From IMG/VR virus record IMGVR_UViG_3300023296_001674: a stretch of 64,000 bases of DNA; one strand, given 5' to 3'. The notes below the pieces were generated by a model. It was not told the origin of the DNA and made no database searches. It saw only the letters and a program-made list of their open reading frames with translations. Of this stretch, positions 41,537-64,000 are shown piece by piece. Every line of letters begins with the position of its first letter. The stretch's first letter is position 1. This DNA is from a virus. The translations under genes were made by a program, and so were the position numbers.

Positions 41537-41616
41537 GTTGTTATTATATATGGTTTGTGCAATATGTCAAGATGTTTATTATTGACTTATGGACGGTGTT
41601 TTTATATAATGATATT

Positions 41617-41844: not shown

Positions 41845-42098
41845 ATATAGATATGATAACTGTTAAATTATGCGATCACGGAATAAATGTTACCATGCAT
41901 CAAGATGCCGAATTTATTGAAACTGAAAAGGGTATATGGTTAGAGGATAATAACATCGATTATCGCATTTGTTCTATTGTTAATATCTTGGCTATGAATA
42001 TAGACGGTAAGACAATTGATGCGATATCTATTGAAAATATGTCATTTTTTAGCGAAGAAGACTTTATGGCATTTAAATTGCGATGGAGCAATCAATAA
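41835..42098 (+). CDS. Hypothetical protein with C-terminal MAFKLRW motif
   Basis: ORF track; 10-nt overlap with the previous gene. Confidence 0.65.
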   Translation: MGINIDMITVKLCDHGINVTMHQDAEFIETEKGIWLEDNNIDYRICSIVNILAMNIDGKTIDAISIENMSFFSEEDFMAFKLRWSNQ

Positions 42099-42580
42099 GA
42101 AGCAAGTTTGGGTGCAAGGAAATCCATATGTGACATAGGGGTATTAATGACAACTGAAAAAGGTAACATCGAAAAATCACCAGCCCAATCTGTACCATTA
42201 TATAACACTTGGTTTAAGAATCTATCATATTTCAATCTAATACTTGAGACTGTTATTACGCATTGTATGCCATCGTCGTTGATATAATATCGCAATCGAT
42301 TGTTATGCAAATCGACAAATCCACCATAATGCATAGTGCCATCTATTAAAATGGTCGCATTACGATAATCATAGCAGTCAGTTCCACCACGTCTTGCTTT
42401 ATACACTTTTTCTTGTTTCCAATTCAATGAATAAGTATTATCTTGATATGTATGTATGCCATCTATTTTTAAGGCGTTACCGTGGAGAACTTTTTGTTTA
42501 AATGAGTTTTCTGTTTGAACGGTTAATGCTTCACCATGAAGTAAATAGCATCCAGTTTCTGATTGTTTTATTGTATTCAT
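42092..42580 (-). CDS. Hypothetical protein
   Basis: ORF track. Confidence 0.65.
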   Translation of the reverse strand: MNTIKQSETGCYLLHGEALTVQTENSFKQKVLHGNALKIDGIHTYQDNTYSLNWKQEKVYKARRGGTDCYDYRNATILIDGTMHYGGFVDLHNNRLRYYINDDGIQCVITVSSIRLKYDRFLNQVLYNGTDWAGDFSMLPFSVVINTPMSHMDFLAPKLASY

Positions 42581-42655
42581 AAGTATTCCTATACTAAATA
42601 TTAAAACAGGATATAATAAATCACAGTAAAAGTCAATAAAACAGGAAAGTATATT

Positions 42656-43045
42656 ATGAGTTTTAATAAAATCATCGACGATATTAAGATTAAGTATTTA
42701 ACGATGGACCCAAGCGTTGATCCAAAGAATAAAGAATCGCGCCGGAACTGGATATTATTCATGGCGAACAAGACACAACGGTTTCCTGTACGTCAGGTAT
42801 ATGATAGATTGATACCGTCTGTAACAAAGATGACAGTCAATACAGATATGAAATACCTTGAAGATCAAGGACTTATCAGGCGCGAGAAAGAAAGTGATGG
42901 AACATCGCATATCGTTCCATTGTTTGATGATTCAGGTGAAGCACCTGAACCAAAGCACGTCATATATAAAAGATGGGCGAAAAATGTAATATTACCACTT
43001 ATTGCCTTGACATTACTTGTCGTATTTGTTATTATCAGTGGTTGA
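42656..43045 (+). CDS. Winged-helix-like protein with C-terminal membrane anchor
   Basis: DMKYLEDQGLIRREKESDG is wHTH-like. C-terminal ILPLIALTLLVVFVIISG. Confidence 0.55.
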   Translation: MSFNKIIDDIKIKYLTMDPSVDPKNKESRRNWILFMANKTQRFPVRQVYDRLIPSVTKMTVNTDMKYLEDQGLIRREKESDGTSHIVPLFDDSGEAPEPKHVIYKRWAKNVILPLIALTLLVVFVIISG

Positions 43046-43065
43046 TATTAACGAGGAAAAAGAAT

Positions 43066-43803
43066 ATGTTATACAGTATAGGCGACGTTCATGGAAGATA
43101 TGATTTACTTAGATATCTTCATGAAAAAATAATGGAACATTCTAAACAATTTGATGAAGTGCATACAATAGTTATGTTGGGCGATTATATTGATCGTGGT
43201 CCAGATAGTAAACAAGTCATTGATTTTTTGATAACTGAACCATTTACAGATTTTAAGCATGTATATTTAAAAGGCAATCATGAAGATATGATGATAAAGT
43301 CATTATATAGTGATGAAGAAACCGTTATATATGATGTATACAAACAAGATATGTATAATGCTAGGAATATATTCTTAGGCAATGGTGGAACAACGACGTT
43401 AGAATCATTCGGGGTTGAATATATCAGACTAATGAATGATAAAGAATCCTTGGATCATGTATTTTTGCCATATTTGCCATTTTTCATGGGTTTAGAATAT
43501 TATTATGATGTTAATGGATATTATTTTGTTCATGCTGGCATTGTTCCTGGTGTTCCATTGGATCAGCAAGACCCTAACGCTGTGCTTTGGATACGTGATA
43601 GGTTTTTAAATAATACTGATGATCATGGCAGATTGATAATACACGGACACACGCCCACGACAACGCGTGGTATGGGTGCTCATCCAGAAGTTAAACCCAA
43701 CCGTATTAATATAGATACGTGTGCATATCGTACTGGAATTTTAACAGCGGTATGTCTCGACGAAGCGCATCTCCGAGTGCCAGAGTTTATTAGCACAGAA
43801 TAA
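43066..43803 (+). CDS. PPP-family Ser/Thr protein phosphatase / ApaH-like metallophosphatase
   Basis: Trimmed to ATG 43066. GDVHGRYD, GDYIDRGPDS, GNHE, HAG, GHT. Confidence 0.85.
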   Translation: MLYSIGDVHGRYDLLRYLHEKIMEHSKQFDEVHTIVMLGDYIDRGPDSKQVIDFLITEPFTDFKHVYLKGNHEDMMIKSLYSDEETVIYDVYKQDMYNARNIFLGNGGTTTLESFGVEYIRLMNDKESLDHVFLPYLPFFMGLEYYYDVNGYYFVHAGIVPGVPLDQQDPNAVLWIRDRFLNNTDDHGRLIIHGHTPTTTRGMGAHPEVKPNRINIDTCAYRTGILTAVCLDEAHLRVPEFISTE

Positions 43804-43886
43804 ATTGTTTTTTATTTGACATATGTGATATATATATGTTACTATCATGTTATAAAATAACAATAATCTTTAATATGGAGTAACAA

Positions 43887-44288
43887 ATGAATAAAAATCT
43901 GCTTACAACTTTGATAAATATTAATATAGTAAAGCCCGGAACCGAAATAGCAATGTTGCGTATCGGAAACTCGATGGTTGGATCAGGAGCAACCTCTTTG
44001 AAAATGAGGGTGTTTAGCACAGAAGATAAGGACGGTAATCAACAACAAATAGAAGTGAATGCAAATCATCTCGTAGAAATATATAAGTGTGAAATAATCG
44101 ATGAAGAAATATCTATATATGCACATAGCGTTGTAGATGGCGAAAAATTCATATTAAATGACGAAGATATTGTATTGATTGACAGCATGTTACCAGAAAA
44201 ATTAGCTGCGGTTTACGGATACACACCAGACGGAATCAAAAAGATACAAGGCAAAAAGCGGGGGCGTAAACCAAAAATAAGAGAGTAA
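43887..44288 (+). CDS. Hypothetical protein with basic AT-hook-like tail
   Basis: ORF track; C-terminal GKKRGRKPKIRE. Confidence 0.65.
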   Translation: MNKNLLTTLININIVKPGTEIAMLRIGNSMVGSGATSLKMRVFSTEDKDGNQQQIEVNANHLVEIYKCEIIDEEISIYAHSVVDGEKFILNDEDIVLIDSMLPEKLAAVYGYTPDGIKKIQGKKRGRKPKIRE

Positions 44289-44296
44289 CATAACAT

Positions 44297-44590
44297 ATGG
44301 GCAAATTAATAAGTTTTCATGATAATCCAGTAACAAGTTTAAAAAAAGAATTGATCGAAACAGAAGAAAAATTAAAAATTGCCCAACATGAGTTATCGTT
44401 TTTTAAAAGTATATATTCTACAACGCATTCAATTGGTGATTTAATAAAATTGCAGTTGGCGGATTTATCACAAAATGTAATGACGCATCAAGGACATCTT
44501 AAAATGGTTCAAGAAAATATAAATGCAATCAGAGTTAAGTTGGAAAACCTTGAAGAAATGAAGAATAGAGTAAAAATGATTGATGAATAA
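44297..44590 (+). CDS. Coiled-coil protein
   Basis: ORF track; heptad-like EEKLKIAQHEL... Confidence 0.65.
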   Translation: MGKLISFHDNPVTSLKKELIETEEKLKIAQHELSFFKSIYSTTHSIGDLIKLQLADLSQNVMTHQGHLKMVQENINAIRVKLENLEEMKNRVKMIDE

Positions 44591-44596
44591 CAAAAA

Positions 44597-44622
44597 ATCC
44601 ACCCTGCGAGGGTGGATTTTTT
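44597..44622 (+). terminator. Rho-independent terminator
   Basis: tccaccct-gcga-gggtgga, then T6. Confidence 0.8.
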
Positions 44623-44669
44623 GTCTCTAATAATAAATAATAGTAGGTTTTTATTTAGAGGAATAAAAA

Positions 44670-44858
44670 ATGGCAAAATTAGCAACACAAACATTTACCA
44701 TAACATTATCTAGAGCCGTTCCATCCGATGCGTCGGGTGGTATCACTGCTTTAAATGAAGAAGCAATAGATCAATTAAAAGAAGCAATAGTTGCTTTAGC
44801 AAATGATGATAGCATAGTGGTTGATTTTGTAGAAGCATTATATGTAGGAGATGAATAA
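44670..44858 (+). CDS. Hypothetical protein
   Basis: ORF track; TAATAAATA motif 39 nt upstream. Confidence 0.65.
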   Translation: MAKLATQTFTITLSRAVPSDASGGITALNEEAIDQLKEAIVALANDDSIVVDFVEALYVGDE

Positions 44859-45330
44859 AATGAATGATATACAATTGAGTGGAAATTTTAAATTATCAGA
44901 GTTGGTTAAGTCAGATACGGCGGAAAGGTTAGATATTGATAACTGGCCCACAGACAATGATACTATTGAAGCGTTAAGGGTGACAGCAAACAGAATATTG
45001 CAGCCCGTCAGAATGAATTACGGTATTTCTTTTTCGCCTACTAGCGGGTTTCGTTGCTTAACCTTGAATAGAGCATTAAAATCGAAAGATACATCTGATC
45101 ATGTTTTAGGTAGAGCAGTAGATTTTGAAGTACCAGGAATACCAAATAAAGATTTGGCTGTGTGGATACGAGATAACCTATCTTTTGATCAGGTTATATT
45201 AGAATTTTGGGATGGGATAAATCCAAACTCTGGGTGGGTGCATTGTTCTTTTAGATCAGAAACTGAAAATAGAAATCAGTGTTTAACTATTAATAAAAAT
45301 GGCGTATTTAATGGATTTAGAGCAAATTAA
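44851..45330 (+). CDS. Peptidase M15-family cell-wall endopeptidase (probable endolysin)
   Basis: FKLSELVKSDTA...SGFRCLTLNRALKSKDTSDHVLGRAVDFEV (SxHxxGxAxD zinc site). Confidence 0.8.
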   Translation: MNKMNDIQLSGNFKLSELVKSDTAERLDIDNWPTDNDTIEALRVTANRILQPVRMNYGISFSPTSGFRCLTLNRALKSKDTSDHVLGRAVDFEVPGIPNKDLAVWIRDNLSFDQVILEFWDGINPNSGWVHCSFRSETENRNQCLTINKNGVFNGFRAN

Positions 45331-46024
45331 ACAAGAAATTTATTATTTATATGAAATTGAAAATATTATCAATGGAAAGAAATATATCGGATATACTAAT
45401 AATCCAAGACTTCGCCAAAAAGCACATTTTGTTTGGAAAAATAGTGGGTCTATATTGGTTGAACATGCTATTAAAAAATATGGATTAGATTCATTGCGGT
45501 TTAAAATACTTGTTAAATCAGACAATGAAGTATATATTAAAGATTTAGAAATTGCAGCCATTAGCTCTCTTAATACCAAAGCACCACAAGGGTATAATTT
45601 AACTGATGGCGGCGAAGGAACTCGTGGTTTGACATTATCTGATAATCAAAAAGCAGATAGAAGTAAAAACATGAAAGGTAAAATGATTGGTGAGAAAAAT
45701 CCCTTTTATGGAAAGAAACATGATCCAGAAACTCTAAAAAGAATGGTAGAAACTAGAAGAAAAAATGGATCATATGTTGCGTGGAATAAAGGCGGCGGAC
45801 ATAAATTAAGTGCTAAAAGTCGCAAAAGTCTCCGTGAAAACAGACCTGTTGGCGGGACAAAAAATCCAAACGCCAAGTTGACGGAAGAAAAAGTACGAGA
45901 AATATATAATCTAAAAGGACAAATGACTGGTGAAAAGGTCGTCATGTTCTTAGGTTTGAATGTATCTGGTGAGACCGTTAGACGTATATGGAATAGAACT
46001 ACATGGTCGAGTTTAGTATATTAA
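45299..46024 (+). CDS. GIY-YIG homing endonuclease with NUMOD3-like repeat
   Basis: IYYLYEIENIINGKKYIGYTNNPRLRQKAH (GIY-YIG), GEKNPFYGKKH. Overlaps the endolysin 3' end by 32 nt. Confidence 0.85.
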   Translation: MAYLMDLEQIKQEIYYLYEIENIINGKKYIGYTNNPRLRQKAHFVWKNSGSILVEHAIKKYGLDSLRFKILVKSDNEVYIKDLEIAAISSLNTKAPQGYNLTDGGEGTRGLTLSDNQKADRSKNMKGKMIGEKNPFYGKKHDPETLKRMVETRRKNGSYVAWNKGGGHKLSAKSRKSLRENRPVGGTKNPNAKLTEEKVREIYNLKGQMTGEKVVMFLGLNVSGETVRRIWNRTTWSSLVY

Positions 46025-46069
46025 TATACTATAATAAATAATACTATATTAACGTGAAGGATCAATACT

Positions 46070-46486
46070 ATGAGTAAACAAAGCATCGTAATGTTAGACG
46101 ACACCGGCATTATTCAAAGTGTCTCTGGTGAGGCAATCCGTGCTGATGCATGGTTTGGACTTAAAGATGGATTACATACCGTTACATTTCATATGGAAGA
46201 CTTTACTGGTAGAATATACATTGAAGCCTCATTAGAAACTGAACCAGCGGAAATCGATTGGTTTCCGGTTCACTTGAATGGTGGAAATGCGTATATGCAA
46301 TATCCATTAGACCCGTTGGTTCCTACTGGCACAGCCGGTGATACATTTGTTGATGCGTTTACGTTTCAAGGTAATTTTCTTTATCTTAGAGCAAGAATTG
46401 ATCGCAGTTATTATGTCCCTGTTCCAACTACAGATGACGAAAAATCACTACTTGGGTCAGTAAAGAAGATATTATTAAATCATTAA
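46070..46486 (+). CDS. Hypothetical protein
   Basis: ORF track; TAATAAATA motif 38 nt upstream. Confidence 0.7.
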   Translation: MSKQSIVMLDDTGIIQSVSGEAIRADAWFGLKDGLHTVTFHMEDFTGRIYIEASLETEPAEIDWFPVHLNGGNAYMQYPLDPLVPTGTAGDTFVDAFTFQGNFLYLRARIDRSYYVPVPTTDDEKSLLGSVKKILLNH

Positions 46487-46489
46487 TAC

Positions 46490-46518
46490 TTGACAGTGGC
46501 GGATTGTTTTGTTATAAT
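46490..46518 (+). promoter_or_regulatory. Consensus sigma70 promoter for the methyltransferase operon
   Basis: TTGACA 46490-46495, 17 nt, TATAAT 46513-46518. Confidence 0.7.
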
Positions 46519-46551
46519 TCATAATATAAAACAAGTAAAAAGAGTTCATAT

Positions 46552-47391
46552 ATGAAATCACCATTACGATATCCGGGTGGCAAAACGCGTGCAACCAAAA
46601 CATTATACTCGTTAATACAATACCATATACAACAAAATAATATAACTGATATATGTTCGCCATTTTTGGGTGGAGGATCATTTGAATTATTTTTATGTAC
46701 AACTGGCATTAATGTTACCGGATATGACATTTTTGATCCGTTGGTAGATTTTTGGCAGTGCATGTTAACTGATCCAGATAAATTAGTTGCGGTTATAGAA
46801 ACTTATAAAAAATCATATGACAGTGGAATACCAACAGCAAAAGAACAATTTTATATATTACAAAAAACACAACACGAATATTCCGACGTATGGCACAGGG
46901 CGGCAATATTTTTCACATTGAATAGATCGTCTTTTTCTGGATCGACGATGTCTGGTGGATGGTCGCCCGATTATCCACGTTTTAATGATTCTTCTATCGA
47001 AAGAGTTAAATCATTTAACGAACCATTGCTGCAAGTTAATAAATTATCGTTTGATCAATCTATAACAAAACATAAAAACAGTTTTCTATATCTCGATCCG
47101 CCATACATGATTGAACACAATCTTTATGGAAAAAAAGGAAACACCCATAAAGATTTTGATCATTTAGGATTATATGACATATTAACAACTAGAGATAATT
47201 GGATTATGTCATACAACGATGATGCTGATATTCGAAATTTATATCAGAATTATAAAATAGAAACGGTAAATTGGGCATATGGCATGACTTCTAATCGCAA
47301 ATCAAATGAAATCGTTATATTCAGTGATGATATAATATCCGACCCTTACTCTATAGATGCTATATCAAAAGGCGCGAATATAATTTGGTAG
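46552..47391 (+). CDS. dam: DNA N6-adenine methyltransferase, Dam/D12 class
   Basis: RYPGGK, SPFLGGGS (FxGxG), LNRSSFSG, DPPY (LYLDPPYM). Confidence 0.85.
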   Translation: MKSPLRYPGGKTRATKTLYSLIQYHIQQNNITDICSPFLGGGSFELFLCTTGINVTGYDIFDPLVDFWQCMLTDPDKLVAVIETYKKSYDSGIPTAKEQFYILQKTQHEYSDVWHRAAIFFTLNRSSFSGSTMSGGWSPDYPRFNDSSIERVKSFNEPLLQVNKLSFDQSITKHKNSFLYLDPPYMIEHNLYGKKGNTHKDFDHLGLYDILTTRDNWIMSYNDDADIRNLYQNYKIETVNWAYGMTSNRKSNEIVIFSDDIISDPYSIDAISKGANIIW

Positions 47392-47401
47392 AAATAATGC
47401 A

Positions 47402-48535
47402 ATGTCAAGTTTGAAATATAGGAAAATACGAAAACATATGCTTGAAAATGTTATTAATTGGGGCAATTTTAAATATGTCCCAACGAAAAAAATAAAGAAA
47501 AAAACGAATATCGTTGACCGCGATGCATATAAAAATGCGTTCGGGATAGATTTAGTTTTATCCAATAATAAATCTAACAAATCCGGCGACGTTCTAGAAT
47601 GCGCAACTGCTATTGTCTTATCCAAAAAATTACATGGATCGACTATATATAAAAACAACAGAAAATCTGATAGGGTACATAATGCATTTAATGAATTATC
47701 AGAAATTGAACAATTAAAATGGTTGACGTTAGTAGAAAAAAGCGTAGATGAAATTATAGCAGCAGAAAAATTAGACGAATACACTGATATAATAATATAC
47801 TTTTGCGATCAATCACTCGAAGATGATCAACGTGATATTGTAGTAAAGTCTAATAATGATGACATTTGTGGTATATCTTGCAAGAGAAACAACACCTCTA
47901 ATAAATCTATATCGTGGTATGCCCTGACGACATTTGATAATTTTATAGTTAAGTATACCAATGGATCGATAATCGCCGATGTCATAGATCAAAATATTAT
48001 TGCGGGTTTTTACCACAGGGGTATAAAATTTATTAATCACACCACCAATATCATCGATAATATCAGAAGATGGCCTTCAACAAAAAAAGGTTATTTGCAA
48101 ACACCGCGTGAAAAAGTTATATTAAGAAATAGAATAAACATGTTACAATTAATGACTGATTATATACATAAAATGTTTGTTAGATATATAGAAATGTCAT
48201 CAAATGAAGAATATGATATACGATTATTATATAACATATTGAATGGCATAGGAAAATATGATTATTATAAAGTATCGACGACTAACGATAAACCTAACGA
48301 CGTCGAATCCATCAATACTCATAACACATTGAATAATTATACAGCAATTAAAACCCCCCTTATAATACCAAAATCATTAAATATTACGATGGGTTATGAT
48401 AAACAAAATCGTGTTATAATTATATATGATTTTGGTGGTACCAATATAATGCACATGAGATTACACACCAAGTCTGGTCGTATGTTAAATTCACATATGG
48501 GCATAGAATGCGTGAACGAAACTGCTAAAAAATGA
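47402..48535 (+). CDS. Candidate type II restriction endonuclease partnered with the Dam-class methyltransferase (function unproven)
   Basis: Starts 10 nt after the methyltransferase stop. Very AT-rich. ...EDDQRDIVVKSNNDDICGISCKRNN... could be a PD-(D/E)xK-type block (by eye). Confidence 0.6.
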   Translation: MSSLKYRKIRKHMLENVINWGNFKYVPTKKIKKKTNIVDRDAYKNAFGIDLVLSNNKSNKSGDVLECATAIVLSKKLHGSTIYKNNRKSDRVHNAFNELSEIEQLKWLTLVEKSVDEIIAAEKLDEYTDIIIYFCDQSLEDDQRDIVVKSNNDDICGISCKRNNTSNKSISWYALTTFDNFIVKYTNGSIIADVIDQNIIAGFYHRGIKFINHTTNIIDNIRRWPSTKKGYLQTPREKVILRNRINMLQLMTDYIHKMFVRYIEMSSNEEYDIRLLYNILNGIGKYDYYKVSTTNDKPNDVESINTHNTLNNYTAIKTPLIIPKSLNITMGYDKQNRVIIIYDFGGTNIMHMRLHTKSGRMLNSHMGIECVNETAKK

Positions 48536-48578
48536 CATACACAACCCCCTAATTCTATTATATAACAAACCTAAGCCA

Positions 48579-48593
48579 TTCTAATAAATATAA
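48579..48593 (+). promoter_or_regulatory. Candidate late promoter motif (TTCTAATAAATATAA)
   Basis: The 15-mer is identical to 50986-51000. Core TAATAAATA (48582-48590) lies 43 nt before ATG 48625. Resembles the T4 late -10 TATAAATA. Confidence 0.5.
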
Positions 48594-48624
48594 AGAGAAC
48601 ATATTTAATAGGACTATTGTATCT

Positions 48625-50991
48625 ATGGCTATACATGCACAAAAAACAACATTCAGATCGTCTGCACAATTTCCTGATTTTCTTGTAACGGGTCCGTTAA
48701 CCAATGGTCATATATTAGTTTATAGTGATGAAGTCAATGCATTTATTAATACCACAGGAACTATTGGCGGTGGCGGTGATGGCACATTAGATGGCGCAGT
48801 CAATATTGGAACTGGTTCAGAAATATTTAAAGCCATTAATGTTACAGACGAATTAGAATTAAGAACGCTACTTGGCGGTCAAGGTATATCATTACTTGAA
48901 GGCGCTAATGAAATAGAAATATCCAATGATATTATAACTGATTCTGCTATTAGTGTTGCAGATTCTTTTGTTGTAACGATAGATAATGATAACACCACAA
49001 CAGACACTGCGGTATTTGGTGTTAGCACTAATAGTTCTCCTGCAACGATAGTTGTTGCACCAGTTGCCACATATGTTGCCCCAAATTTAGATATATCGGT
49101 TGTGTTACCGAGTTCATTTGTCACTGCATCTGGTGATTTCGTAGCGGACGGTTTTGTTACCGGTATGTGCTTGAAATCAACCGGAACCACTGAACAAGAT
49201 GGTATTTGGATAATAGATACGGTAACAACCAATACAATAACAATAACTGTTCCATTTACAAATCAAACCGACGCGGGTGATCAACCAGACACAACATTGG
49301 AAGGAATGTTTGTTGTATTTACTGCTACAACTTTAACGATGACAGGGCGTGATTTCTACGAAGATGGATTTAGAGTAGGATATACAGTTGACGTAACTGG
49401 AACTACTGATAATGATGGAACATATACAATTGCAGTAATATCTGGCGCAGATATGCTTATCAATGAAACATTTCCGGTAGCGGGATGTGATGTAGGAACT
49501 ATAACTGTAGCGGTTCCTGTTCAGGATCATTCAACTGGATGGTCTGTTAATGAACTTGGTGTCACAATTTCTAACGGTGGAACATTTAACGGTGATATAA
49601 CTGTCACATCTGCCAATAATATAAACATAGACCAAGGAACATTGTTAATCGATAGTGTAGATATTATTGATACTATAAACGCTGCGATATTTACAGTTCC
49701 AACTAATGGTCTTATAACACAAACAACATCGGGCAATTTCACATCCAGAGTGGTTGCAGTTAGTGGTGGATTATCCATCGTTGACGGAGATGGAATAGCA
49801 GGCGATCCTACTATAAGCGTTGATGCATTTGACATTACGTTAGATGGAGATATAACAGGAACGGCAACTGTCACGGATTTAGGTAATACAACCATAACTA
49901 CTACATTAGGAGACAATGGCGTAGTTAATGGGACATTTAACCATGTAACCGTTGATAGCACAGGACGAGTAACAAATGGAACAAATGATGCAATCGTAGG
50001 GGCGAATGGAATAACTGTTACCAATGGTGATGGTGTTGCAGGAACTCCAACTATTACGGCGGCGGATTTTGACATAACAATAGCAGGTGATGTTATTGGA
50101 ACGGCAACAGTTACTGGATTAGCTGATGTCGTTATAACTGTAGCACTAGATGCTATAGCTGCACCAGGAACTTATAACTCAGTTACGATTGATGCAACTG
50201 GTCGAGTTACTTCTGGTTCAGTGATACCGGGCGGCAGTTATCAAGCTGCTGATCCAGAGTTAGATGATTTATCTGGCGGTTTAACCGATCCCGGTTTTAC
50301 AGTATGGGATGGCACGCAATACATCGATAGAACTATAAATGGTTCTACTAATGAGATTGTGGTAACGAATGGAGACGGTGTTGCAAGCGACGCAGTAATT
50401 GGATTGGCTGATGACCCAATCATTCCGGGAACTGGTTCTATGACAATACCAAGAGGCCCAGCGGTTGATAGACCAGGGTCGGGTGTTGAAGGTATGATTA
50501 GATATCACGCTGATGCACAAGATTTCTTTGAAGGATACACCGATACAGGGTGGCTACCATTTATGATGGATGAGGGTGTTTCATTCTTACCATTGGCTGG
50601 TGGCACAATGACTGGTGATATCACTATGGATAGCAACGATATCATCGATATTGGATTAGTTGATGGTCGTGACGTTGCAGTAGATGGTGCAATATTAGAT
50701 GATTTGAATACTGGAACCGGTATCAAAGCACAAGTAGCGGCTGGCGACTTTGAAAGTAGAACAATCGTTGGTACCGCACCAATCGTAGTCACTGATGGTG
50801 ATGGCGTAGCAGGCAATCCTACGGCATCAATGGATATTACAACTGTTACTGCCCTTGAAGTTGGGCAAGTGGTTGATGAAATAAATGATGAATTAATTAT
50901 TTACGATGATTCACAATCAGCAATGAGACGTATATCGCCAAGACAATTAAATAATAGATTTGCCCGTAGATATTTTATGGCGCAATTCTAA
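48625..50991 (+). CDS. Tail-fibre-like structural protein with internal repeats
   Basis: 788 aa, rich in Thr/Gly/Val/Ile. Repeats SIVDGDGIAGDPTISVDAFDITLDGDITGTATVTDLGN, ITVTNGDGVAGTPTITAADFDITIAGDVIGTATVTGL, VVTNGDGVASD, VVTDGDGVAGNPT. Confidence 0.8.
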   Translation: MAIHAQKTTFRSSAQFPDFLVTGPLTNGHILVYSDEVNAFINTTGTIGGGGDGTLDGAVNIGTGSEIFKAINVTDELELRTLLGGQGISLLEGANEIEISNDIITDSAISVADSFVVTIDNDNTTTDTAVFGVSTNSSPATIVVAPVATYVAPNLDISVVLPSSFVTASGDFVADGFVTGMCLKSTGTTEQDGIWIIDTVTTNTITITVPFTNQTDAGDQPDTTLEGMFVVFTATTLTMTGRDFYEDGFRVGYTVDVTGTTDNDGTYTIAVISGADMLINETFPVAGCDVGTITVAVPVQDHSTGWSVNELGVTISNGGTFNGDITVTSANNINIDQGTLLIDSVDIIDTINAAIFTVPTNGLITQTTSGNFTSRVVAVSGGLSIVDGDGIAGDPTISVDAFDITLDGDITGTATVTDLGNTTITTTLGDNGVVNGTFNHVTVDSTGRVTNGTNDAIVGANGITVTNGDGVAGTPTITAADFDITIAGDVIGTATVTGLADVVITVALDAIAAPGTYNSVTIDATGRVTSGSVIPGGSYQAADPELDDLSGGLTDPGFTVWDGTQYIDRTINGSTNEIVVTNGDGVASDAVIGLADDPIIPGTGSMTIPRGPAVDRPGSGVEGMIRYHADAQDFFEGYTDTGWLPFMMDEGVSFLPLAGGTMTGDITMDSNDIIDIGLVDGRDVAVDGAILDDLNTGTGIKAQVAAGDFESRTIVGTAPIVVTDGDGVAGNPTASMDITTVTALEVGQVVDEINDELIIYDDSQSAMRRISPRQLNNRFARRYFMAQF

Positions 50992-54902: not shown

Positions 54903-55565
54903 ATGAGTTTTAATAATAGACCAGATAGACCTATAGAATCATCCATTTACCTACGATTGGTAACTGAAGGCGAAATGAGAAAAAACACAATAAAATCATT
55001 TTACTCTACTGTTAAAGAAAACGCACCGGAAAATGTATTAAGTCATTACGATGTTCAAGACCCTGATGGAAATCCTGCTACAACGTTGTTATTACATCGC
55101 GTTAATGAAGACAATAAGCATGAATACGAAATACCATTGGTTAGAAACCTTACACCAGATGAAATATACGAAGTAGCATTAAATCTTAACACTAAATTAA
55201 ATGAAGGTGATTTTTTATTAGAATCGAGTTCATTTGACGATGATTGCTGCCTTACGGAAGATGATGATCCATCTGAATATATGGAAGCAGACGTTTTTGA
55301 ACGATTTGCAGAGAAATTATCTGAGCGCATGCATAATGTATGGTATAAAGAACGCGAAGATGCTGGCTGGAGATTTGGTACACAGCGCCTCGAAGAAGAA
55401 AAAACACACCCATTAATGAAACCATGGAATCAATTAACCGAAGAAGATAAACAAATAGACTATTCATTGCCTGAATTTTTTATTGATTTGTTAGAAGAAT
55501 TTGGGTATGCAGTTGTAAGTCATGATGAATTAGATGGATTTTCAGAAGAAATATCTAAAAAATAA
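54903..55565 (+). CDS. RyR (ryanodine-receptor-type) domain protein
   Basis: FAEKLSERMHNVWYKEREDAGWRFGTQRLEEEKTHPLMKPWNQLTEEDKQIDYS matches the RyR domain pattern. Confidence 0.7.
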   Translation: MSFNNRPDRPIESSIYLRLVTEGEMRKNTIKSFYSTVKENAPENVLSHYDVQDPDGNPATTLLLHRVNEDNKHEYEIPLVRNLTPDEIYEVALNLNTKLNEGDFLLESSSFDDDCCLTEDDDPSEYMEADVFERFAEKLSERMHNVWYKEREDAGWRFGTQRLEEEKTHPLMKPWNQLTEEDKQIDYSLPEFFIDLLEEFGYAVVSHDELDGFSEEISKK

Positions 55566-56661: not shown

Positions 56662-57513
56662 ATGTATAACACAAGAATAGCGCCATCACCAACGGGTGAT
56701 ATGCACCTTGGTACTGCTAGAACCGCTTATCATAATTTTTTGATGGCAAGGGCGTCCGGTGGAAAATTTATATTGCGCATCGACGATACTGATGCTGCAC
56801 GCAGTAAACAGTCGCACGTCGACGTCATCCTTGAAACTATGGATTGGTTGGGTTTAGACTACGACGAAATCGTTTATCAAAGTGATAGAAATGATCGTTA
56901 TATGGAAGTAATCAAACAGATGGATGCAGATGATCTTGTTTGCGAGTTAGACAATGGTGCATTTGGCACATTCATCGAAAGGGTTCCTGATGAATGGACA
57001 GATGAAATTGCTGGTGATATTATAGTGTCAGAGACCGATAGTGATATTAGTTCTAGTCTTATATTAATGAAAAGTGATGGAACTCCTACTTATCATTTTG
57101 CATCAGTAATAGATGATATGGATTTCAATATTAATTATATTATCAGAGGACACGATCATATATCTAATACACCAAAGCAACTCAATATTATGAACAACCT
57201 TGGTATGGTCATACCTAAGTTCGCACACGTGGGTCTTATTCACAAAGACGGTAAGAAATTATCTAAACGTGACGGCGCAGCAAGTATGTTGCACTATCGC
57301 GATCAAGGATATGACCCTGATGCAATGCTCAATTTTTTATTGAATCTTGGGTGGGCACCAACAAATCAAGGCAAGCAACATAAAATAATAGATCGTGATT
57401 TTGCTCTAGAGATTTTTATCAATGGTGGAAAATTGCGCAATCAATCAGCAAATATGGATTTAGCATTACTAGATTCATACAATAAAAAGTATAAGTATAT
57501 CAAGAGGAAATAA
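56662..57513 (+). CDS. Truncated glutamyl-tRNA-synthetase-like enzyme (catalytic core only; GluQRS-type architecture)
   Basis: RIAPSPTGDMHLGTARTA (HIGH-type), FILRIDDTD, DGTPTYHFASVIDD, IIRGHDHISNTPKQ, KLSKR (KMSKS-type). 283 aa, so no anticodon-binding domain. Confidence 0.85.
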   Translation: MYNTRIAPSPTGDMHLGTARTAYHNFLMARASGGKFILRIDDTDAARSKQSHVDVILETMDWLGLDYDEIVYQSDRNDRYMEVIKQMDADDLVCELDNGAFGTFIERVPDEWTDEIAGDIIVSETDSDISSSLILMKSDGTPTYHFASVIDDMDFNINYIIRGHDHISNTPKQLNIMNNLGMVIPKFAHVGLIHKDGKKLSKRDGAASMLHYRDQGYDPDAMLNFLLNLGWAPTNQGKQHKIIDRDFALEIFINGGKLRNQSANMDLALLDSYNKKYKYIKRK

Positions 57514-57514: not shown

Positions 57515-58351
57515 ATGAAGTACGATTTAGGTTCAGATTTACACGTAGATATTAATGCGGGTCGCATTGGTATGGTTAGATTTAAAGAAATGAAAAACGC
57601 AGGTAGTGATACTATAGTATTGGCAGGTGATATATCAAATGATCCAGAACTCACTGTTAAAGTATTAGCGATGGCGGCATCGGCATATGAAAATGTAATA
57701 TTTGTGGATGGAAATCACGAACATTATAGTAACGGAAAATATGGGTTAGACGTTTCTGGTGCTATGGGATTCTTCAAAGAAGCAATAGATTTAATACCAA
57801 ATGTCACATATTTATCTGGCGACAATAACGTTATTATTGACGACACGATGTTCGTTGGGGCTAATGCTTGGTATGATTTTAGAATGGCACCACCACAATA
57901 CACGCCTGAAAAATGCAAAGAAGCATGGGAAACAAGCCTAAATGATTTTAGATTATCTAATTTTGACGTAGAGCCAGAAGTATTGGCGGGTATTCAGTCT
58001 GCATTGATTGCGGATCAAGTATCCAAAGCGCAAGATAATGACGATGTTAAAAAAATAGTAGTTGTTACCCACACCGTGCCGAACACTAAAGGATTATTAG
58101 TTAAAAATAATCCATCGTGGGATATATTAAATGGCTGTTTTGGAAATTCAACGATGTCAAACGTATGGCAAGTTGATACAAATCGCAAAATTATTCACGC
58201 AGTTTGTGGACATACACATTATCCAAATGATTTTGTCGACAACGATGGTATAAGATTTGTAATAAATCCAAGAGGTTATCATGGTGCTGAAAACGAACTT
58301 GGTGATAGATGGTTTTTAGTTCAAATGGATACATCAGACGAACGTATATAA
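57515..58351 (+). CDS. Calcineurin-like metallophosphoesterase
   Basis: SDLHVD, LAGDISND, VDGNHEHY, VVTHTVP, CGHTHY. Starts 1 nt after the previous stop. Confidence 0.8.
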   Translation: MKYDLGSDLHVDINAGRIGMVRFKEMKNAGSDTIVLAGDISNDPELTVKVLAMAASAYENVIFVDGNHEHYSNGKYGLDVSGAMGFFKEAIDLIPNVTYLSGDNNVIIDDTMFVGANAWYDFRMAPPQYTPEKCKEAWETSLNDFRLSNFDVEPEVLAGIQSALIADQVSKAQDNDDVKKIVVVTHTVPNTKGLLVKNNPSWDILNGCFGNSTMSNVWQVDTNRKIIHAVCGHTHYPNDFVDNDGIRFVINPRGYHGAENELGDRWFLVQMDTSDERI

Positions 58352-58426: not shown

Positions 58427-60076
58427 ATGACAAAATATTACATGGGTGTATCCGCTTATCATCACGATAGTGCTGCCGCGCTAATAGATGAACACGGAAA
58501 CATTATTTGCGTTAGCCAAGAAGAACGTAGAACACTTATAAAGAATGACAAATCGTGGCCTGAAGAAAGTATTAATTTTTGTTTACGTCATGCAAAATCG
58601 CAACAGTTAGATACATCCGATATCACTTATGGATTTTATGAAAAACCATGGATTAAATTTACACGTAGATTTTGTCAAAATCCTAAAGACACCGTTCGAT
58701 ATTTCAAAGAAGCATATAATACTACGAAAAAAATAAAAGGTTATAAAACCATAATGCATCACGATGCTCATGCATTGGCTGGATGTGCAACATCGCCATT
58801 TGATAATTGTGTATATTTAATAGTTGATGCAGTGGGTGAATGGGAGACGACAACTTGGGGAACATTTAATAAAATCGATGGTATAAAAAAAGAAGGGTCT
58901 ATTAGATATCCGCACAGTATAGGATTAATGTATTCATCATTTACGAGATGGTTGGGATTAAAACCAAACGAAGATGAATATATTGTAATGGGTGCGGCGG
59001 CTTTCGGTAAACCACGATTTGCTAATAAAATAAGAAAAGATTTTTTATCAGAAGTAACAGCATCGCCACATGGAATAGAATTTAAAAAAGGAGTTCATAA
59101 CGGTATAGAGCAATACTACGGCGACGAAGTTCCCGTAAAAGATTGGTATGATTGGTGTGCGAGCATCCAGTATGTATGCGAACAAATGATGATAGATTTG
59201 GTTAGAATGTTAGAGCAACAATACGGCAAAGGTCATAATTTGGTATTAGGCGGCGGTGTAGCACTTAATTGTGTGGCAAATTCTAAAATAATGAAATCAA
59301 CGCATGTGAAAGAATTATGGATATTACCAAGCCCCGGTGATAGTGGAAACGCGCTAGGGGCTGCTGCGCACGCCGCTGGCATCAATGATTTAGTTTGGGA
59401 TAGTCCTTACCTTGGAATGGACATGGATAACGACAGTAACCCAACACAGGAACTAATACGCAACGTTGTAGCAAGATTGGATAATGGTGAAATTATAGGT
59501 TGGATACAAGGCAAAGAAGAATTTGGTCCGCGCTCTTTGGGTCATCGTTCATTGCTTGCCGATCCAAGATCATCGAAAATTAAAAATAAAATAAATTTAA
59601 TAAAAAATCGACAAACATTTAGACCTTTCGCACCGTCTGTGTTAGAAGAAGAAACATATATGTATTTTGACTTACCAAATGGCACAACAAGTAGATACAT
59701 GCAATTTACAGCAAGAGTAAAAAATCCAAATATGTTACCTGCAATATGTCATATTGATGGAACCACCAGAGTTCAAACCGTACCTAAATCAACCGATCCA
59801 TTTAGACGATTGCTTGAGCATTGGAAAGAAACCACTGGTTGTGCAGCATTGTTGAACACCAGTCTTAATATCAAAGGTCAACCATTAATGAGTAATCGAA
59901 AAGATGCTATTCAAATGTTATTAGATACACCAATGGATGCATTGGTTATAGGCAATAGATTGTACTATAAAATAACAAAAGATGGATTAAGCGATGAACC
60001 CGGCGAAACGGTTCAAATAGCAGAATGTATAGATTACAGCCAAGGCGTTGATGACATGATTAAAGGTCGTTTCTAA
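58427..60076 (+). CDS. NodU/CmcH-family carbamoyltransferase
   Basis: YMGVSAYHHDSAAALIDEHGNIICVSQEERRT (Kae1-like N-terminal domain), LGGGVALNCVAN, EFGPRSLGHRSLLADPR, RPFAPSVLEE, DGTTRVQTV. Confidence 0.85.
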   Translation: MTKYYMGVSAYHHDSAAALIDEHGNIICVSQEERRTLIKNDKSWPEESINFCLRHAKSQQLDTSDITYGFYEKPWIKFTRRFCQNPKDTVRYFKEAYNTTKKIKGYKTIMHHDAHALAGCATSPFDNCVYLIVDAVGEWETTTWGTFNKIDGIKKEGSIRYPHSIGLMYSSFTRWLGLKPNEDEYIVMGAAAFGKPRFANKIRKDFLSEVTASPHGIEFKKGVHNGIEQYYGDEVPVKDWYDWCASIQYVCEQMMIDLVRMLEQQYGKGHNLVLGGGVALNCVANSKIMKSTHVKELWILPSPGDSGNALGAAAHAAGINDLVWDSPYLGMDMDNDSNPTQELIRNVVARLDNGEIIGWIQGKEEFGPRSLGHRSLLADPRSSKIKNKINLIKNRQTFRPFAPSVLEEETYMYFDLPNGTTSRYMQFTARVKNPNMLPAICHIDGTTRVQTVPKSTDPFRRLLEHWKETTGCAALLNTSLNIKGQPLMSNRKDAIQMLLDTPMDALVIGNRLYYKITKDGLSDEPGETVQIAECIDYSQGVDDMIKGRF

Positions 60077-61098
60077 TGCACCCATATATGTTTGTTTTAA
60101 AACTTGCGACACTTAAAAAAATGGCTGATAAAAAAACGGTGTTGCGCGGTGCAGCGGTAGATGGATGCATCAATTTATTTGAAGGTTTTCAATTAGCGTT
60201 TGATAAAAAACGAGTATTTCATGTTAAAAGTGTGCCATTGATTGAAATAGATGAAACAATGTCACAAGATGAAATAACCGAAAATGGAACATACACTTGG
60301 GATATGTTTAAGGCGTTGGTTGGTTTATTAGAAAAAAATGATATTGATGAAGAAACGAAAAAAACGCTATTATATGAAGCGTGTGAACAATCGGGAATAT
60401 TAGAATGGAATGGATTCTATCGTCCCATACTCATGAAAAATATTAAATGTGGGGTAATGCCAAAAACAATAAACGCGATATTGGATGAATTCGGCGGAAC
60501 GGCATTGAAATATAAAATACCAATATGGAAAATACAACGAATACATCAAAATGGATTACATGTAGGTGAAAAATATGTAGAACCATTATTAGATGGCAAA
60601 CGAGCAATCACGATTGTAAATAAAGAATTAAAAATTGCTCAAATGTTTTCTGAAACTGGTGTATTAATAAAAACCCACAAAATAGATTTGGAACCATTGG
60701 CAGAATTGTCATATCAATTTCCAGCAAGTATGGTATTCGATGGTAATATAATCGATAGAAGTTATGGTGAACTTATGGATAAATCTGGAACCGATTCATA
60801 TTATGCGATATATGACATTATTCCGTTATCTGATTTTGAAAAAAGTTATTGCCCAATGGCGCTAACAGATCGAAAAAATACATTAAATGACCTTAACCTC
60901 ATTCTACGCGAAGAAACGAATGGGCAGATATATGTCCTACCGTCTTTACTGATGGATTTTTCTGCTGAAAATAAAGAAAAGAAACTAAAAGAAATTTCCG
61001 ATGAAATAAAAAATGCCGGATTTAAAGCATCAGTTGTCAAAGATAGCAAATCATTCTACACTTGTGCACGCGATTTATCATGGTTCAAAACACAATAA
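60076..61098 (+). CDS. ATP-dependent DNA-ligase-like nucleotidyltransferase-domain protein with non-canonical active-site residues
   Basis: By-eye alignment to T7-type ligase. YVEPLLDGKRA versus motif I KxDGxR (Leu at the Lys position), MVFDGNII versus DGE, YAIYDIIPL, GFKASVVKD versus EGLIVK, SWFKTQ versus WxKxK. No OB domain. ATGA-type overlap with the carbamoyltransferase gene. Confidence 0.5.
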   Translation: MHPYMFVLKLATLKKMADKKTVLRGAAVDGCINLFEGFQLAFDKKRVFHVKSVPLIEIDETMSQDEITENGTYTWDMFKALVGLLEKNDIDEETKKTLLYEACEQSGILEWNGFYRPILMKNIKCGVMPKTINAILDEFGGTALKYKIPIWKIQRIHQNGLHVGEKYVEPLLDGKRAITIVNKELKIAQMFSETGVLIKTHKIDLEPLAELSYQFPASMVFDGNIIDRSYGELMDKSGTDSYYAIYDIIPLSDFEKSYCPMALTDRKNTLNDLNLILREETNGQIYVLPSLLMDFSAENKEKKLKEISDEIKNAGFKASVVKDSKSFYTCARDLSWFKTQ

Positions 61099-61538: not shown

Positions 61539-64000
61539 ATGACATACGTAGACGCAATAAAAGTTAAAGATACCATTTATATCGCAGAACGCGATGCTAA
61601 TGGAAAAAGGATAACACAACAATATCCAGCAACATATACACTATATAAGAAACAGCCACATGGCGAACATACTTCTATCTATGGTGATTCGTTAACGAAA
61701 TACACATTCGGAACATATCAAGACCATAGAAATGCGGTGAATGGTGCGCAACCTAGCACATTATTCGAACATGATATTAATCCAGTTTTCAGTTTTCTTG
61801 AAGAACACTATTCTAATGCTCCATTGCCTATGTTGCATGTTGCATTTTTTGATATTGAGGTCGACTTTGATCCTAATATTGGTTTCTCAAGTCCTGAAGA
61901 CCCATATTGTGCTGTGAATGCTATATCGGTGCATCAATCTTGGACGGGGCAAAACCATACGGTTGTTTTGAAACCAAAAACCATAAGAAAAACACTTATG
62001 ATTAATGGCAAAGAAGTGACTAAACTAGTTCCGTTAACAGAAGAAGAAGCAGTAGAAATATGCAATAAATTCGAAAATACCATATTATGTAGAGATGAAA
62101 TCGAATTATATAATAAATTTTTCGAATTGATATATGATGCGGATATTTTAAGTGGATGGAACAGCACCGGATTTGATATACCATATTTGGTTAGACGATT
62201 AGAAAAAATCAAACATACCGAAAAAAATAAGAAGTTTTGTTTATGGGATCAAAAACCCAGAAAAAGAAATTTTGAAAAATTCGGTAAAGAGCAATTCACA
62301 TATGATTTGTTTGGTCGTGTTCATTTGGACTATCTTGATTTGTATCAAAAACATACGTATCACGAAATGCACAGTTATAGTCTAGATGCTGTTGGCGAGT
62401 ATGAAGTTAAAGAACGCAAAGTAGCATATGCTGGAAGTTTGGATATGCTATATAAGGCGGATTTTGAAAAATTTATCGAATATAACCGTCAAGACGTTAT
62501 GGTGTTAGTTAAAATCGATAAGAAAAACAAATTCATCGAGTTATCCAATAACCTTGCGCACGAAATGACTGTAACATTGCAGACTACACTTGGTTCTGTT
62601 GCGTTGATAGAATCAGCCATATGTAAGGAAATACATTCTCAGGGGCTGATAGCACCAAGTAAGAAAAAACCTTCTGGTGAGTCAACGTCGGTGGCTGGTG
62701 CCTATGTTGCTACCCCTATTAAGGGTTTGCATAATTGGGTTGGTAGCGTAGATATCAATTCGTTATATCCTTCGGTTATTCGAGCACTCAATATAAGCCC
62801 TGAAACAATAGTTGGTCAGATCAGATTAACAGAGACAATGACACACATTTCAGATTATTTGAATGAAAAATCAACCAATACGTTAGCAGAAGCGTGGGGG
62901 GATTTCTTTGGTGTTCATGAATACAATAAATTGATGAGAAAATCTCCTGATGAGAAAATCATTGTAGATTTAGAAGATGGGTCGGCATTAGAACAATCTG
63001 TCGAAGATTGGTTTAATTCTATACACGATGAAGATTCAAGTATGTGCGTAAGTAGTAATGGGACATTATTCAGAATAGACAAAAAAGGCATTATTCCAGG
63101 TTTGCTTGAACGTTGGTATAATGAACGCGTTATTATTCGCAAAGAAGCATCGGATATGTATAAGCAAGTAGAAAATATGGAAGATGGTCCCGAAAAGGAT
63201 GAACTTAATAAACAAATAGCATTCCGTGATCAACGACAATTGATTAAAAAGATTTTGCTTAACAGTTTGTATGGTGCGTTACTTAATCCATATTGTAGAT
63301 TTTTTGATCAACGTATGGGACAGTCAGTTACATTAACTGGGCGTTGTATTACCAAACACATGATGTCAAAAATGAATGAAATATTTACCGGTGAATATGA
63401 TCATGAAGGTGAATCGATAATTTATGGCGATACTGATTCTGCATATTTCTCCGCGTATCCAATTTTCAAAGATATAAAAGATTTTGACTGGTCTGCGGAT
63501 AATATAATTGAATTATATGATACCGTATCAAGTCAAATGAATGAATCGTTTCCGGGTTATATGGTAGATGCGTTTCATACATCATTAGAAAACGGAAAGA
63601 TAATTGAAGCAGGGCGCGAAGTTATTGCACAGAAAGGTGTATTCATTAAAAAGAAACGTTATGCTTTATTATGTAATGATATTGAAGGTAGACGTTTTGA
63701 TCAAGGTGATGAACCAGGAAAAATGAAAGCGATGGGCGTTGAACTTAAACGTTCTGATACACCCGCAAGCATTCAAGTGTTTCTAAAAGACACATTAATG
63801 ATGGCACTATCTGGTTCCAGCGAAGAAGAAATTAGATTATACATTAAAGATTTCCGTGAAGATTTTAGATCATGGGATGGATGGAATAAAGGCGCACCAA
63901 AACGCGTCAACAATCTTACAGAAAAAGTCGATAAAGAAAAAACGTTGGGAATGAGAACCAGCATGGCAGGACATCAACGTGCATCAATGGCATGGAATGA
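61539..64000 (+). CDS. Family B DNA polymerase (partial; continues beyond window end)
   Basis: Not in the ORF track (no stop within the window). ATG 61539 after GAAGGA. Exo I FFDIEV, motif A DINSLYPSVI, KKILLNSLYG, motif C YGDTDS (63424). Confidence 0.9.
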   Translation, partial: MTYVDAIKVKDTIYIAERDANGKRITQQYPATYTLYKKQPHGEHTSIYGDSLTKYTFGTYQDHRNAVNGAQPSTLFEHDINPVFSFLEEHYSNAPLPMLHVAFFDIEVDFDPNIGFSSPEDPYCAVNAISVHQSWTGQNHTVVLKPKTIRKTLMINGKEVTKLVPLTEEEAVEICNKFENTILCRDEIELYNKFFELIYDADILSGWNSTGFDIPYLVRRLEKIKHTEKNKKFCLWDQKPRKRNFEKFGKEQFTYDLFGRVHLDYLDLYQKHTYHEMHSYSLDAVGEYEVKERKVAYAGSLDMLYKADFEKFIEYNRQDVMVLVKIDKKNKFIELSNNLAHEMTVTLQTTLGSVALIESAICKEIHSQGLIAPSKKKPSGESTSVAGAYVATPIKGLHNWVGSVDINSLYPSVIRALNISPETIVGQIRLTETMTHISDYLNEKSTNTLAEAWGDFFGVHEYNKLMRKSPDEKIIVDLEDGSALEQSVEDWFNSIHDEDSSMCVSSNGTLFRIDKKGIIPGLLERWYNERVIIRKEASDMYKQVENMEDGPEKDELNKQIAFRDQRQLIKKILLNSLYGALLNPYCRFFDQRMGQSVTLTGRCITKHMMSKMNEIFTGEYDHEGESIIYGDTDSAYFSAYPIFKDIKDFDWSADNIIELYDTVSSQMNESFPGYMVDAFHTSLENGKIIEAGREVIAQKGVFIKKKRYALLCNDIEGRRFDQGDEPGKMKAMGVELKRSDTPASIQVFLKDTLMMALSGSSEEEIRLYIKDFREDFRSWDGWNKGAPKRVNNLTEKVDKEKTLGMRTSMAGHQRASMAWN

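Follow-up and report, generated by a model that had tools for sequence, protein, structure and literature searches.

Among described proteins, the closest relatives of the one considered here are three-domain ATP-dependent DNA ligases, namely the enzyme of Prochlorococcus marinus (Pmar-Lig; 6RAR/6RAS/6RAU) and the T4 type (6DT1), in which a compact helical DNA-binding domain (DBD) precedes an adenylation domain (AD) and an OB domain. The nearest published idea is that of Iyer et al. 2021, in which standalone ligase DBDs of ligase-less jumbo phages were proposed to recruit the host ligase (PMC7824862). We analyzed a stretch of 64,000 nucleotides (hereafter the window) from the IMG/VR virus record IMGVR_UViG_3300023296_001674, and in particular an open reading frame (ORF) lying upstream of a family-B DNA polymerase (PolB) gene and encoding a ligase-like protein of 340 residues. 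The exact protein sits on a contig of ~570 kb (ENA ERZ27315719 k141_202852, 570,549 bp; a 570,750-bp version is on record as well), which indicates a huge phage. We report here that the protein is a catalytically degenerate homolog of the three-domain ligases, and that it has nonetheless been maintained by selection. Searches of PMC and bioRxiv retrieved no description of a phage ligase protein consisting of a DBD and a dead AD, or of one lacking the OB domain.

A ligase homolog without its catalytic residues or OB domain

The ORF product is a clear homolog of three-domain ATP-dependent DNA ligases. A phmmer search of all PDB chains returned Pmar-Lig (6RAR/6RAU/6RAS) as the best solved relative with E=7e-30, and query residues 16-339 were aligned with residues 21-341 of the 6RAU/6RAR chain. 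PHROG_114, an ATP-dependent DNA ligase family, likewise matched the query (E=1.3e-12). The Pfam model PF01068 (DNA_ligase_A_M) gave no match at E<=1, and none of the NCBIfam ligase models gave one at E<=0.01. As these curated models were silent, recognition of the homology depended on PHROGs, on phmmer against the PDB, and on a fold search. An AlphaFold2 (AF2) model of the 340-residue protein was built on the family alignment and reached a pLDDT of 85.4 and a pTM of 0.75. When the model was searched against the PDB with Foldseek, ATP-dependent DNA ligases ranked best, among them Pmar-Lig (2e-24), the T4 enzyme, one from a Rhizobium phage, and human LigIV; the top matches in BFVD were full-length viral ligases.

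An earlier note on this DNA, made from the sequence alone, had proposed a ligase fold of the two-domain T7 type preceded by an extension of ~165 residues. The model and its top PDB matches bear out the ligase fold. The T7 comparison has to be replaced, since a DBD that can be aligned from residue 16 onward makes the relative the three-domain T4/Pmar type. The N-terminal part is indeed present, but rather than an unexplained extension it is a canonical helical ligase DBD; DSSP assigned helices through residue 146, forming a compact domain of 7-8 helices N-terminal to the AD.

The motif pairings that had been made by eye for motifs I, III, IIIa, and IV and for motif V were all reproduced by HMMER against 6RAU/6RAR. 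We then placed the query onto the contact and mutagenesis tables available for Pmar-Lig (PMC6698739 Tables S1 and S3). Motif I, which reads EIKLDGVR in Pmar-Lig, is paired with EPLLDGKR, and the adenylated K167 is thereby replaced with L171. In a MAFFT alignment with 101 motif-intact ligases, their invariant motif I Lys fell in the same column as L171, in agreement with the HMMER result and with the Leu that had been noted earlier at this position. The HMMER alignment similarly confirmed the two other replacements claimed at the outset, E220 to N224 in motif III (LVLDGEVM paired with MVFDGNII) and E319 to K317 in motif IV (GYEGVMIKD paired with GFKASVVKD). Motif IIIa is LHLFDLCPL in Pmar-Lig and YAIYDIIPL in the query. 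In motif Ia, R187 of Pmar-Lig corresponds to E193, and the motif I Asp (D169) corresponds to D173, a position occupied by H, D, G, T, Q, S, or Y across the close clade described below. Motif V pairs SWLKA with SWFKT, and the protein ends two residues past the first motif V Lys, motif VI being missing together with the whole OB domain. The early stop and the absence of the OB domain were thus as the earlier note had described them, and a tblastn search with a full-length relative revealed no remnant of OB-domain coding sequence downstream of the gene or anywhere in the 64-kb window. In comparison with Pmar-Lig and the T4 type, the query therefore shares the succession of DBD and AD over residues 16-339 and differs in lacking the OB domain with motif VI, the motif I Lys, the motif Ia Arg, and the Glu residues of motifs III and IV, with a motif I Asp that is not conserved among its relatives.

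Published mutational data on the Chlorella virus and M. tuberculosis ligases show that step 1 and/or step 3 depend on the equivalent residues (Table S3 of PMC6698739), and single substitutions at these positions abolish one or both steps in those two enzymes (PMC6698739). Among the 101 intact full-length relatives, the motif I Lys and the Glu residues of motifs III and IV were each found in 101/101, the motif Ia Arg in 100/101, and the motif I Asp in 96/101. The same positions vary freely among 48 relatives lacking the OB domain, in which the catalytic residues have been lost in combinations that differ from lineage to lineage (e.g., KD-S, NNEK, FNEN, LNV, and CAWD). Such differing combinations argue for relaxed selection on the chemistry with the fold still under selection, rather than for a rewired active site. 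The query has lost all the residues on which lysine adenylylation, AMP transfer, and nick sealing depend. Together with the loss of the OB domain, this leaves none of the three ligation steps possible as currently known, and self-adenylylation and nick-sealing activity are predicted to be absent.

The DBD presents a different picture. The kinked helix of the Pmar-Lig DBD is built by W107, N108, F110, Y111, and R112 (PMC6698739), and the equivalent residues W111, N112, F114, Y115, and R116 are invariant in the query family, where they form the EWNGFYR core held in common with the Pmar-Lig and T4 type. Several DNA contacts are shared as well, as the Pmar-Lig backbone contacts K56, R120, G122, and T127 are matched by K51, K124, G126, and T131 in the query. 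Dead and active proteins did not differ in the net charge of their domains, which was considered as an indicator that DNA binding had been lost or that DNA was mimicked.

A conserved family under purifying selection

A search of 5.8 billion proteins recovered 16 relatives at 47-72% identity, all of them 337-347 residues in length. No motif I Lys is found in this close clade, in which, with the query included, the position is L in 14, V in one, and S in one of 16. The motif III Glu is likewise replaced in all close relatives, with Asn in 14 and Met or Cys in the remaining pair. The same search also returned a full-length ligase, P0019, which has 450 residues, is 38% identical, and carries all motifs and the OB domain.

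Codon analysis of four orthologs gave pN values of 0.20-0.30 against a saturated pS of 0.65-0.81. The resulting dN/dS of ~0.08-0.23 is comparable to the 0.10 obtained for the neighboring carbamoyltransferase. Both domains are constrained, with pN for the AD (0.21-0.37) well under pS. Within the dead clade, mean pairwise identity was 71.6% for the DBD vs 53.4% for the AD, and in 97% of the pairs the DBD was the more similar domain. The corresponding values for the active sister clade were 55.7% and 58.3%. The pattern of constraint is thus inverted relative to that of real ligases, with the DBD being the most conserved part of the protein.

A profile search run exhaustively over 1.84 billion cluster representatives yielded 930 hits. 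For classification, we used 159 retrieved sequences of at least 280 residues, comprising profile hits and the relatives already in hand, and counted as OB-less those ending within 25 residues of motif V. By this measure, 101 were full-length with the K, E, and E intact, 48 were both OB-less and degenerate, and 10 were fragments or odd cases. R176, D222, D247, and K322 are kept in 48/48 of the OB-less proteins and W336 in 46/48. Beyond the close clade, the OB-less class includes 31 further cluster representatives, found on contigs of up to 854 kb. In a neighbor-joining tree, the OB-less proteins formed two large clusters along with scattered ones, and the active P0019/P0021 were nested in one of the clusters; a tree of this kind is prone to long-branch attraction and is too crude for telling a single loss of the OB domain from repeated losses.

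The region had no megablast match among INPHARED phages, and in tblastn searches with the query and with the distant family member P0059, the cultured-phage matches were all full-length ligases at 22-26% identity, so that the two-domain dead form was found in no cultured phage by these searches.

The above considerations establish that the gene represents a conserved family under purifying selection and not a pseudogene. None of the alignments put a lysine at the motif I position, and the fold resembles that of ligases. The protein lacks the adenylated Lys, the acidic metal ligands of motifs I, III, and IV, the Arg of motif Ia, and the OB domain, yet purifying selection persists, which supports the pseudo-ligase that the earlier note had put forward as one of two possibilities.

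One locus in three states

Comparison of the surrounding genes revealed three states of a single syntenic locus. In the first, found in a related JGI contig of 572 kb (L010), an intact ATP ligase of 451 residues (P0030) lies between a gene for an RyR-domain protein and the HTH and PolB genes, and tblastx showed the RyR, ligase, HTH, and PolB genes to be collinear with the window. In the second, which comprises the window and its relatives, a DBD joined to a dead AD is encoded at the same locus. In the third, the RyR gene is followed by a standalone DBD of 134-138 residues, then by an NAD+ ligase having PF01653, PF03120, and BRCT domains, and then by PolB. This last arrangement is carried by two jumbo phages in culture, Atu_ph07 of Agrobacterium (490 kb) and Phosso of Sinorhizobium (469 kb), and by two huge phages from metagenomes, L013 and a JGI contig. 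The standalone DBD was matched to the query DBD with an hhalign probability of 95-97%, and its BFVD model gave a TM of 0.82. Since an intact ligase occupies the same RyR/HTH/PolB position in L010, the ligase-like protein is best seen as a positional ortholog of the phage replicative ligase, in an intermediate but stably kept state of reduction.

The protein can be compared with the occupants of the other two states. It is 32-38% identical over the whole shared length to the intact ligases P0030 and P0019/P0021, whereas these keep K-D-E-E, the motif Ia Arg, and an OB domain of ~100 residues. The proteins from Atu_ph07 (AUZ95055.1, 135 residues) and Phosso (XYS97368.1, 138 residues) resemble it in having a homologous DBD, in being encoded after the RyR gene and upstream of PolB, and in being non-catalytic survivors of an ATP-dependent ligase. 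They differ in that they have no AD and adjoin an NAD+ ligase, whereas the window protein keeps an AD fold of 180 residues and has HTH and PolB as its next genes with no ligase nearby; in addition, the K124/G126/T131 loop is not conserved in the DBD-only proteins. As with pseudoenzymes in general, the fold is kept, the catalytic residues are replaced, and purifying selection continues, but the protein appears to be the positional ortholog of the enzyme rather than an extra paralog.

Public names of two of these proteins overstate their function. P0014 (L002 9846-10874), named 'DNA ligase-1' by JGI, is a dead two-domain relative, and Phosso XYS97368.1 (L012 4971-5387), named 'DNA ligase' in GenBank, consists of the DBD only. 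We further observed that PolB of L010 is interrupted, with pieces at 15744-17969 and 19641-20654. Pfam Intein_splicing was detected on the first piece, and homology to the window polymerase resumes ~1.9 kb on, past an inserted ORF of 340 codons.

The gene order is conserved in relatives of the window. Upstream of the ligase-like gene it comprises tail-fiber-like genes followed by those for the RyR-domain protein, a GluRS-catalytic-domain protein, a metallophosphoesterase, and a carbamoyltransferase; downstream are the genes for the 89-residue HTH protein, PolB, a 260-residue protein, ClpP, and, further on, a FEN-type 5'-3' exonuclease (Table 1). Amino acid identity to the relatives was 54-62% for the ligase-like protein, 65-71% for the carbamoyltransferase, 70-83% for the HTH protein, and 74-77% for PolB. 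The ATG of the ligase-like gene overlaps the carbamoyltransferase stop codon by 1 nt (TAATG), and the identical overlap is present in L001 (this contig), L002, L003, L004, and L005. A terminator-like hairpin (58360-58389) precedes the carbamoyltransferase/ligase-like pair and a promoter-like site (61129-61157) follows it; sites of these kinds were not enriched over shuffled sequence and are a weak hint at most. Distant OB-less members were found on contigs of 544-854 kb and ~40 kb, again after an RyR gene and without the carbamoyltransferase, one of them lying 8 kb before PolB.

Table 1. Features of the ligase-like gene and its locus. Positions are those of the window except where a related locus is named.
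Feature	Coordinates	Strand	Remarks
RyR-domain protein (PF02026)	54903..55565	+	Marks the upstream edge of the syntenic locus, whichever of the three states is present
Glu/Gln-tRNA synthetase catalytic domain only (PF00749, E=6e-63)	56662..57513	+	YadB/GluQ-RS-like size
Metallophosphoesterase	57515..58351	+	
Carbamoyltransferase, NodU/CmcH type (PF02543+PF16861)	58427..60076	+	Stop overlaps the ligase-like start
Ligase-like ORF, OB-less and catalytically degenerate	60076..61098	+	340 residues plus stop; ATG start, double stop TAATAA
Helical DBD, T4/Pmar type	60076..60555	+	Residues 1-160
Adenylation (nucleotidyltransferase) domain	60556..61095	+	Residues 161-340; fold intact, catalytic residues gone
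Motif I remnant EPLLDGKR	60580..60603	+	Leu171 for adenylated Lys; Asp173 variable, Arg176 invariant, and Lys175 unconserved in relatives
Motif III remnant DGN	60739..60747	+	Glu replaced by Asn224
Motif IIIa YAIYDIIPL	60802..60828	+	Adenine-stacking aromatic Tyr246 and Asp247 kept
Motif IV remnant GFKASVVKD	61018..61044	+	Glu replaced by Lys317; Val320 and Lys322 kept
Motif V remnant SWFK	61078..61098	+	First Lys kept, then Thr-Gln-stop; second motif V Lys and OB domain absent
HTH (DsbA-like) protein, 89 residues	61192..61461	+	Directly downstream; conserved in relatives
Family-B DNA polymerase (PolB)	61539..64000	+	Leaves the window; 912 residues in the contig; downstream border of the syntenic locus
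RyR genes of related loci	L007 6151-7104, L008 9237-9842, L009 5340-5999, L010 7993-8616		
RyR genes of related loci, continued	L011 4345-4998, L012 4336-4974, L013 4894-5547		

The RyR protein itself has ~200-320 residues with a C-terminal RyR domain. In all of the huge-phage loci that we inspected, its gene lies just upstream of the ligase, its degenerate form, or the DBD, regardless of the state of the ligase, and no other neighbor is linked as constantly. The GluRS-like, metallophosphoesterase, and carbamoyltransferase genes form a three-gene cassette between the RyR gene and the ligase-like gene, and the cassette is absent from the active-ligase and DBD-only loci. In L009, a CysRS-like protein is encoded instead and, further on, GTP cyclohydrolase I. 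The cassette may constitute a nucleic-acid or small-molecule modification pathway. In L007, a 544-kb huge-phage contig, an IS605 OrfB/TnpB gene (Cas12f-like; 15847-17046, minus strand) lies between the ligase-like gene and the DNA polymerase.

Possible roles of the protein and wider context

Judging from its position and the residues it retains, we tentatively favor, at a little under an even chance, the reading that the protein derives from the replicative ATP ligase of the phage itself, is non-catalytic, and would now serve as a DNA-binding accessory of replication. It would act within the replication module, next to PolB and with ClpP and the FEN-type exonuclease downstream. The DBD would grip duplex DNA by way of its retained minor-groove contacts, and the dead AD would act as a scaffold, either structural or for the binding of partners, and might still hold an adenine nucleotide. 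Nicks would be sealed by a ligase acting in trans, either the NAD+-dependent LigA of the host or a phage ligase encoded outside the window. A helper role is suggested by the DBD-only state, which is always paired with an NAD+ ligase, and by the recruitment proposal of Iyer et al. (PMC7824862). The standalone-DBD example of those authors, P-SSM2 AAX44695.1, has no detectable similarity to the present family (hhalign probability 0.1).

Several results weigh against the accessory reading. No ligase gene lies beside the ligase-like gene here or in the loci of six relatives. Pfam searches with ten of the larger ORFs did not reveal a second ligase in the window, nor did tblastn with six huge-phage NAD+ ligases reveal one in the window or in any of the relatives' loci outside L011 and L012. 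Among the best 120 homologs of the Atu_ph07 NAD+ ligase, and likewise of the active P0019, there was no other protein from the ~570-kb contig; the part of the genome that could be read was the 64-kb window, and lists of the best 120 are not conclusive for the remaining ~506 kb. The dead AD has also been retained under selection, although its deletion would be expected if the DBD alone mattered, as seen in Atu_ph07, which implies that the AD does something beyond what the model provides. Furthermore, two DBD contacts are lost (T87 to D91 and H89 to E93), and the AD residues that touch the nick in Pmar-Lig are gone or have turned acidic (R187 to E193, K333 to A331 or Glu, and H234 in a gap), making canonical nick recognition doubtful. 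The nick binder suggested in the earlier note thus survives in part. The retained K51, K124, G126, and T131 are in keeping with DNA binding, but with the nick-holding residues of the AD replaced, often by acidic ones, the expectation would be binding to duplex DNA or its minor groove and not canonical nick capture.

It is possible, if unlikely, that the dead AD would instead be an unreactive binder of ATP, AMP, NAD+, or an adenylated DNA end, in which case the protein might be a nucleotide-gated DNA-binding regulator or sensor, or a sequestering 'sponge'. The close clade retains every position that contacts adenosine in Pmar-Lig (PMC6698739) and has lost the catalytic ones; E165, K324, and R172 of Pmar-Lig are matched by E169, K322, and R176 in 16/16, F249 by an aromatic residue (Y246) in 16/16, and M322 by V or I (V320) in 16/16, and the first motif V Lys is kept in 15/16. 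The four residues common to all 48 OB-less proteins and the purifying selection on the AD are consistent with this as well. However, 10/31 of the distant OB-less relatives have another residue (I, T, V, S, or still others) in place of the stacking aromatic, and roughly half of them have a replaced motif V Lys, indicating that the adenine pocket is not a family-wide constraint, and the universally kept residues may be fold-stabilizing ion pairs rather than ligand contacts. In a further extension that we consider improbable, the OB-less, Lys-less proteins would make up a widespread undescribed huge-phage family with a new job as nucleotide-gated DNA readers, here acting with the carbamoyltransferase, the GluRS-like enzyme, and the phosphoesterase in placing a new modification on phage DNA or its ends. 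A proposal centered on the carbamoyltransferase, with the ligase-like protein as its DNA-targeting partner in a base or end modification proceeding through a carbamoyl-adenylate intermediate, strikes us as distinctly improbable. The two genes are coupled by the 1-nt overlap in the window and in L002-L005, where the ligase-like proteins are 54-62% identical to the query; the hairpin and promoter-like site bracket the pair, and the cassette also holds the GluRS-catalytic-domain protein and the metallophosphoesterase. Such overlaps are frequent in compact phage genomes, however, and the carbamoyltransferase does not adjoin the ligase-like gene in L007 or L008, is three genes away in L009, and is absent from the active-ligase and DBD-only states. 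This patchy linkage marks the association as clade-specific, and the genes have the appearance of a cassette that was inserted after the RyR gene and ahead of the ligase locus.

That the protein is still an enzyme, a nucleotidyltransferase or ligase that uses another nucleophile or obtains an OB domain in trans, appears highly improbable even though the lysines of motifs IV and V and the motif I Arg are kept. An OB fold supplied in trans has precedent in the trypanosome editing ligase REL1, which works with KREPA2. No sequence like the OB domain of a relative was present in the window, however, and the gene downstream encodes a helical HTH protein. The other possibility raised in the earlier note, that the Lys of DGKR serves as nucleophile, does not agree with the variation at Lys175, a position at which 7 of the 16 close relatives have K and the others have T (five), S (two), I (one), or N (one); conservation this poor does not support a role as alternative nucleophile. 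Neither the motif Ia Arg nor any of the three acidic metal ligands remains, mutants at the equivalent positions lose step 1 and/or step 3, and the lineage-specific combinations in which catalytic residues disappeared speak against a rewired active site. Barely credible, finally, is a functionless, decaying ligase remnant, for which one could cite the loss of all catalytic motifs and of the OB domain and the faster evolution of the dead protein relative to its neighbors (54-62% identity vs 65-83%). The ORF is nevertheless intact and of constant length in 16 close relatives and occurs in 31 further OB-less cluster representatives, pN stays far under the saturated pS in the DBD and the AD alike, conservation of the DBD exceeds that seen in active ligases, and the start, stop, and gene overlap are conserved. 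The selection data effectively refute the pseudogene reading, and homologs at 47-72% identity are not assembly copies of one sequence.

Other features were observed in the window apart from the ligase-like locus. The ORF at 12617..13462 (+) encodes a protein of 281 residues with an N-terminal Macro domain (PF01661, E=1.5e-32) that may reverse or read ADP-ribosylation. A 322-residue ArdC-like protein of the anti-restriction type is encoded at 31625..32593 (+), having an ArdC N-terminal ssDNA-binding domain and an MPTase-PolyVal zincin metallopeptidase domain. A GIY-YIG-type homing endonuclease gene (45299..46024, +; PHROG 314/7168/5123) is separated by one small ORF (46070..46486) from a DNA methyltransferase gene downstream of it (46552..47391, +; PHROG 56). 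The G+C content of the window, ~0.39-0.44, falls to 0.33-0.36 between ~34 and 50 kb (34001..50000), and the GC skew is negative at ~26-36 kb, coinciding with several minus-strand ORFs.

The protein examined here documents a natural, selected, and catalytically dead DNA ligase. It would not amount to a new principle unless the dead domain has acquired a new activity, and as a stable ligase scaffold binding DNA without reacting, it might find use as a tool. One syntenic locus provides a stepwise series, from an intact ATP ligase through a DBD with a dead AD to a DBD alone beside an NAD+ ligase, and this series suggests that the ligase DBD has a role in huge-phage replication that is separable from ligation. 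The family thereby offers a system for asking how phages without a ligase of their own at this locus get their Okazaki fragments sealed.

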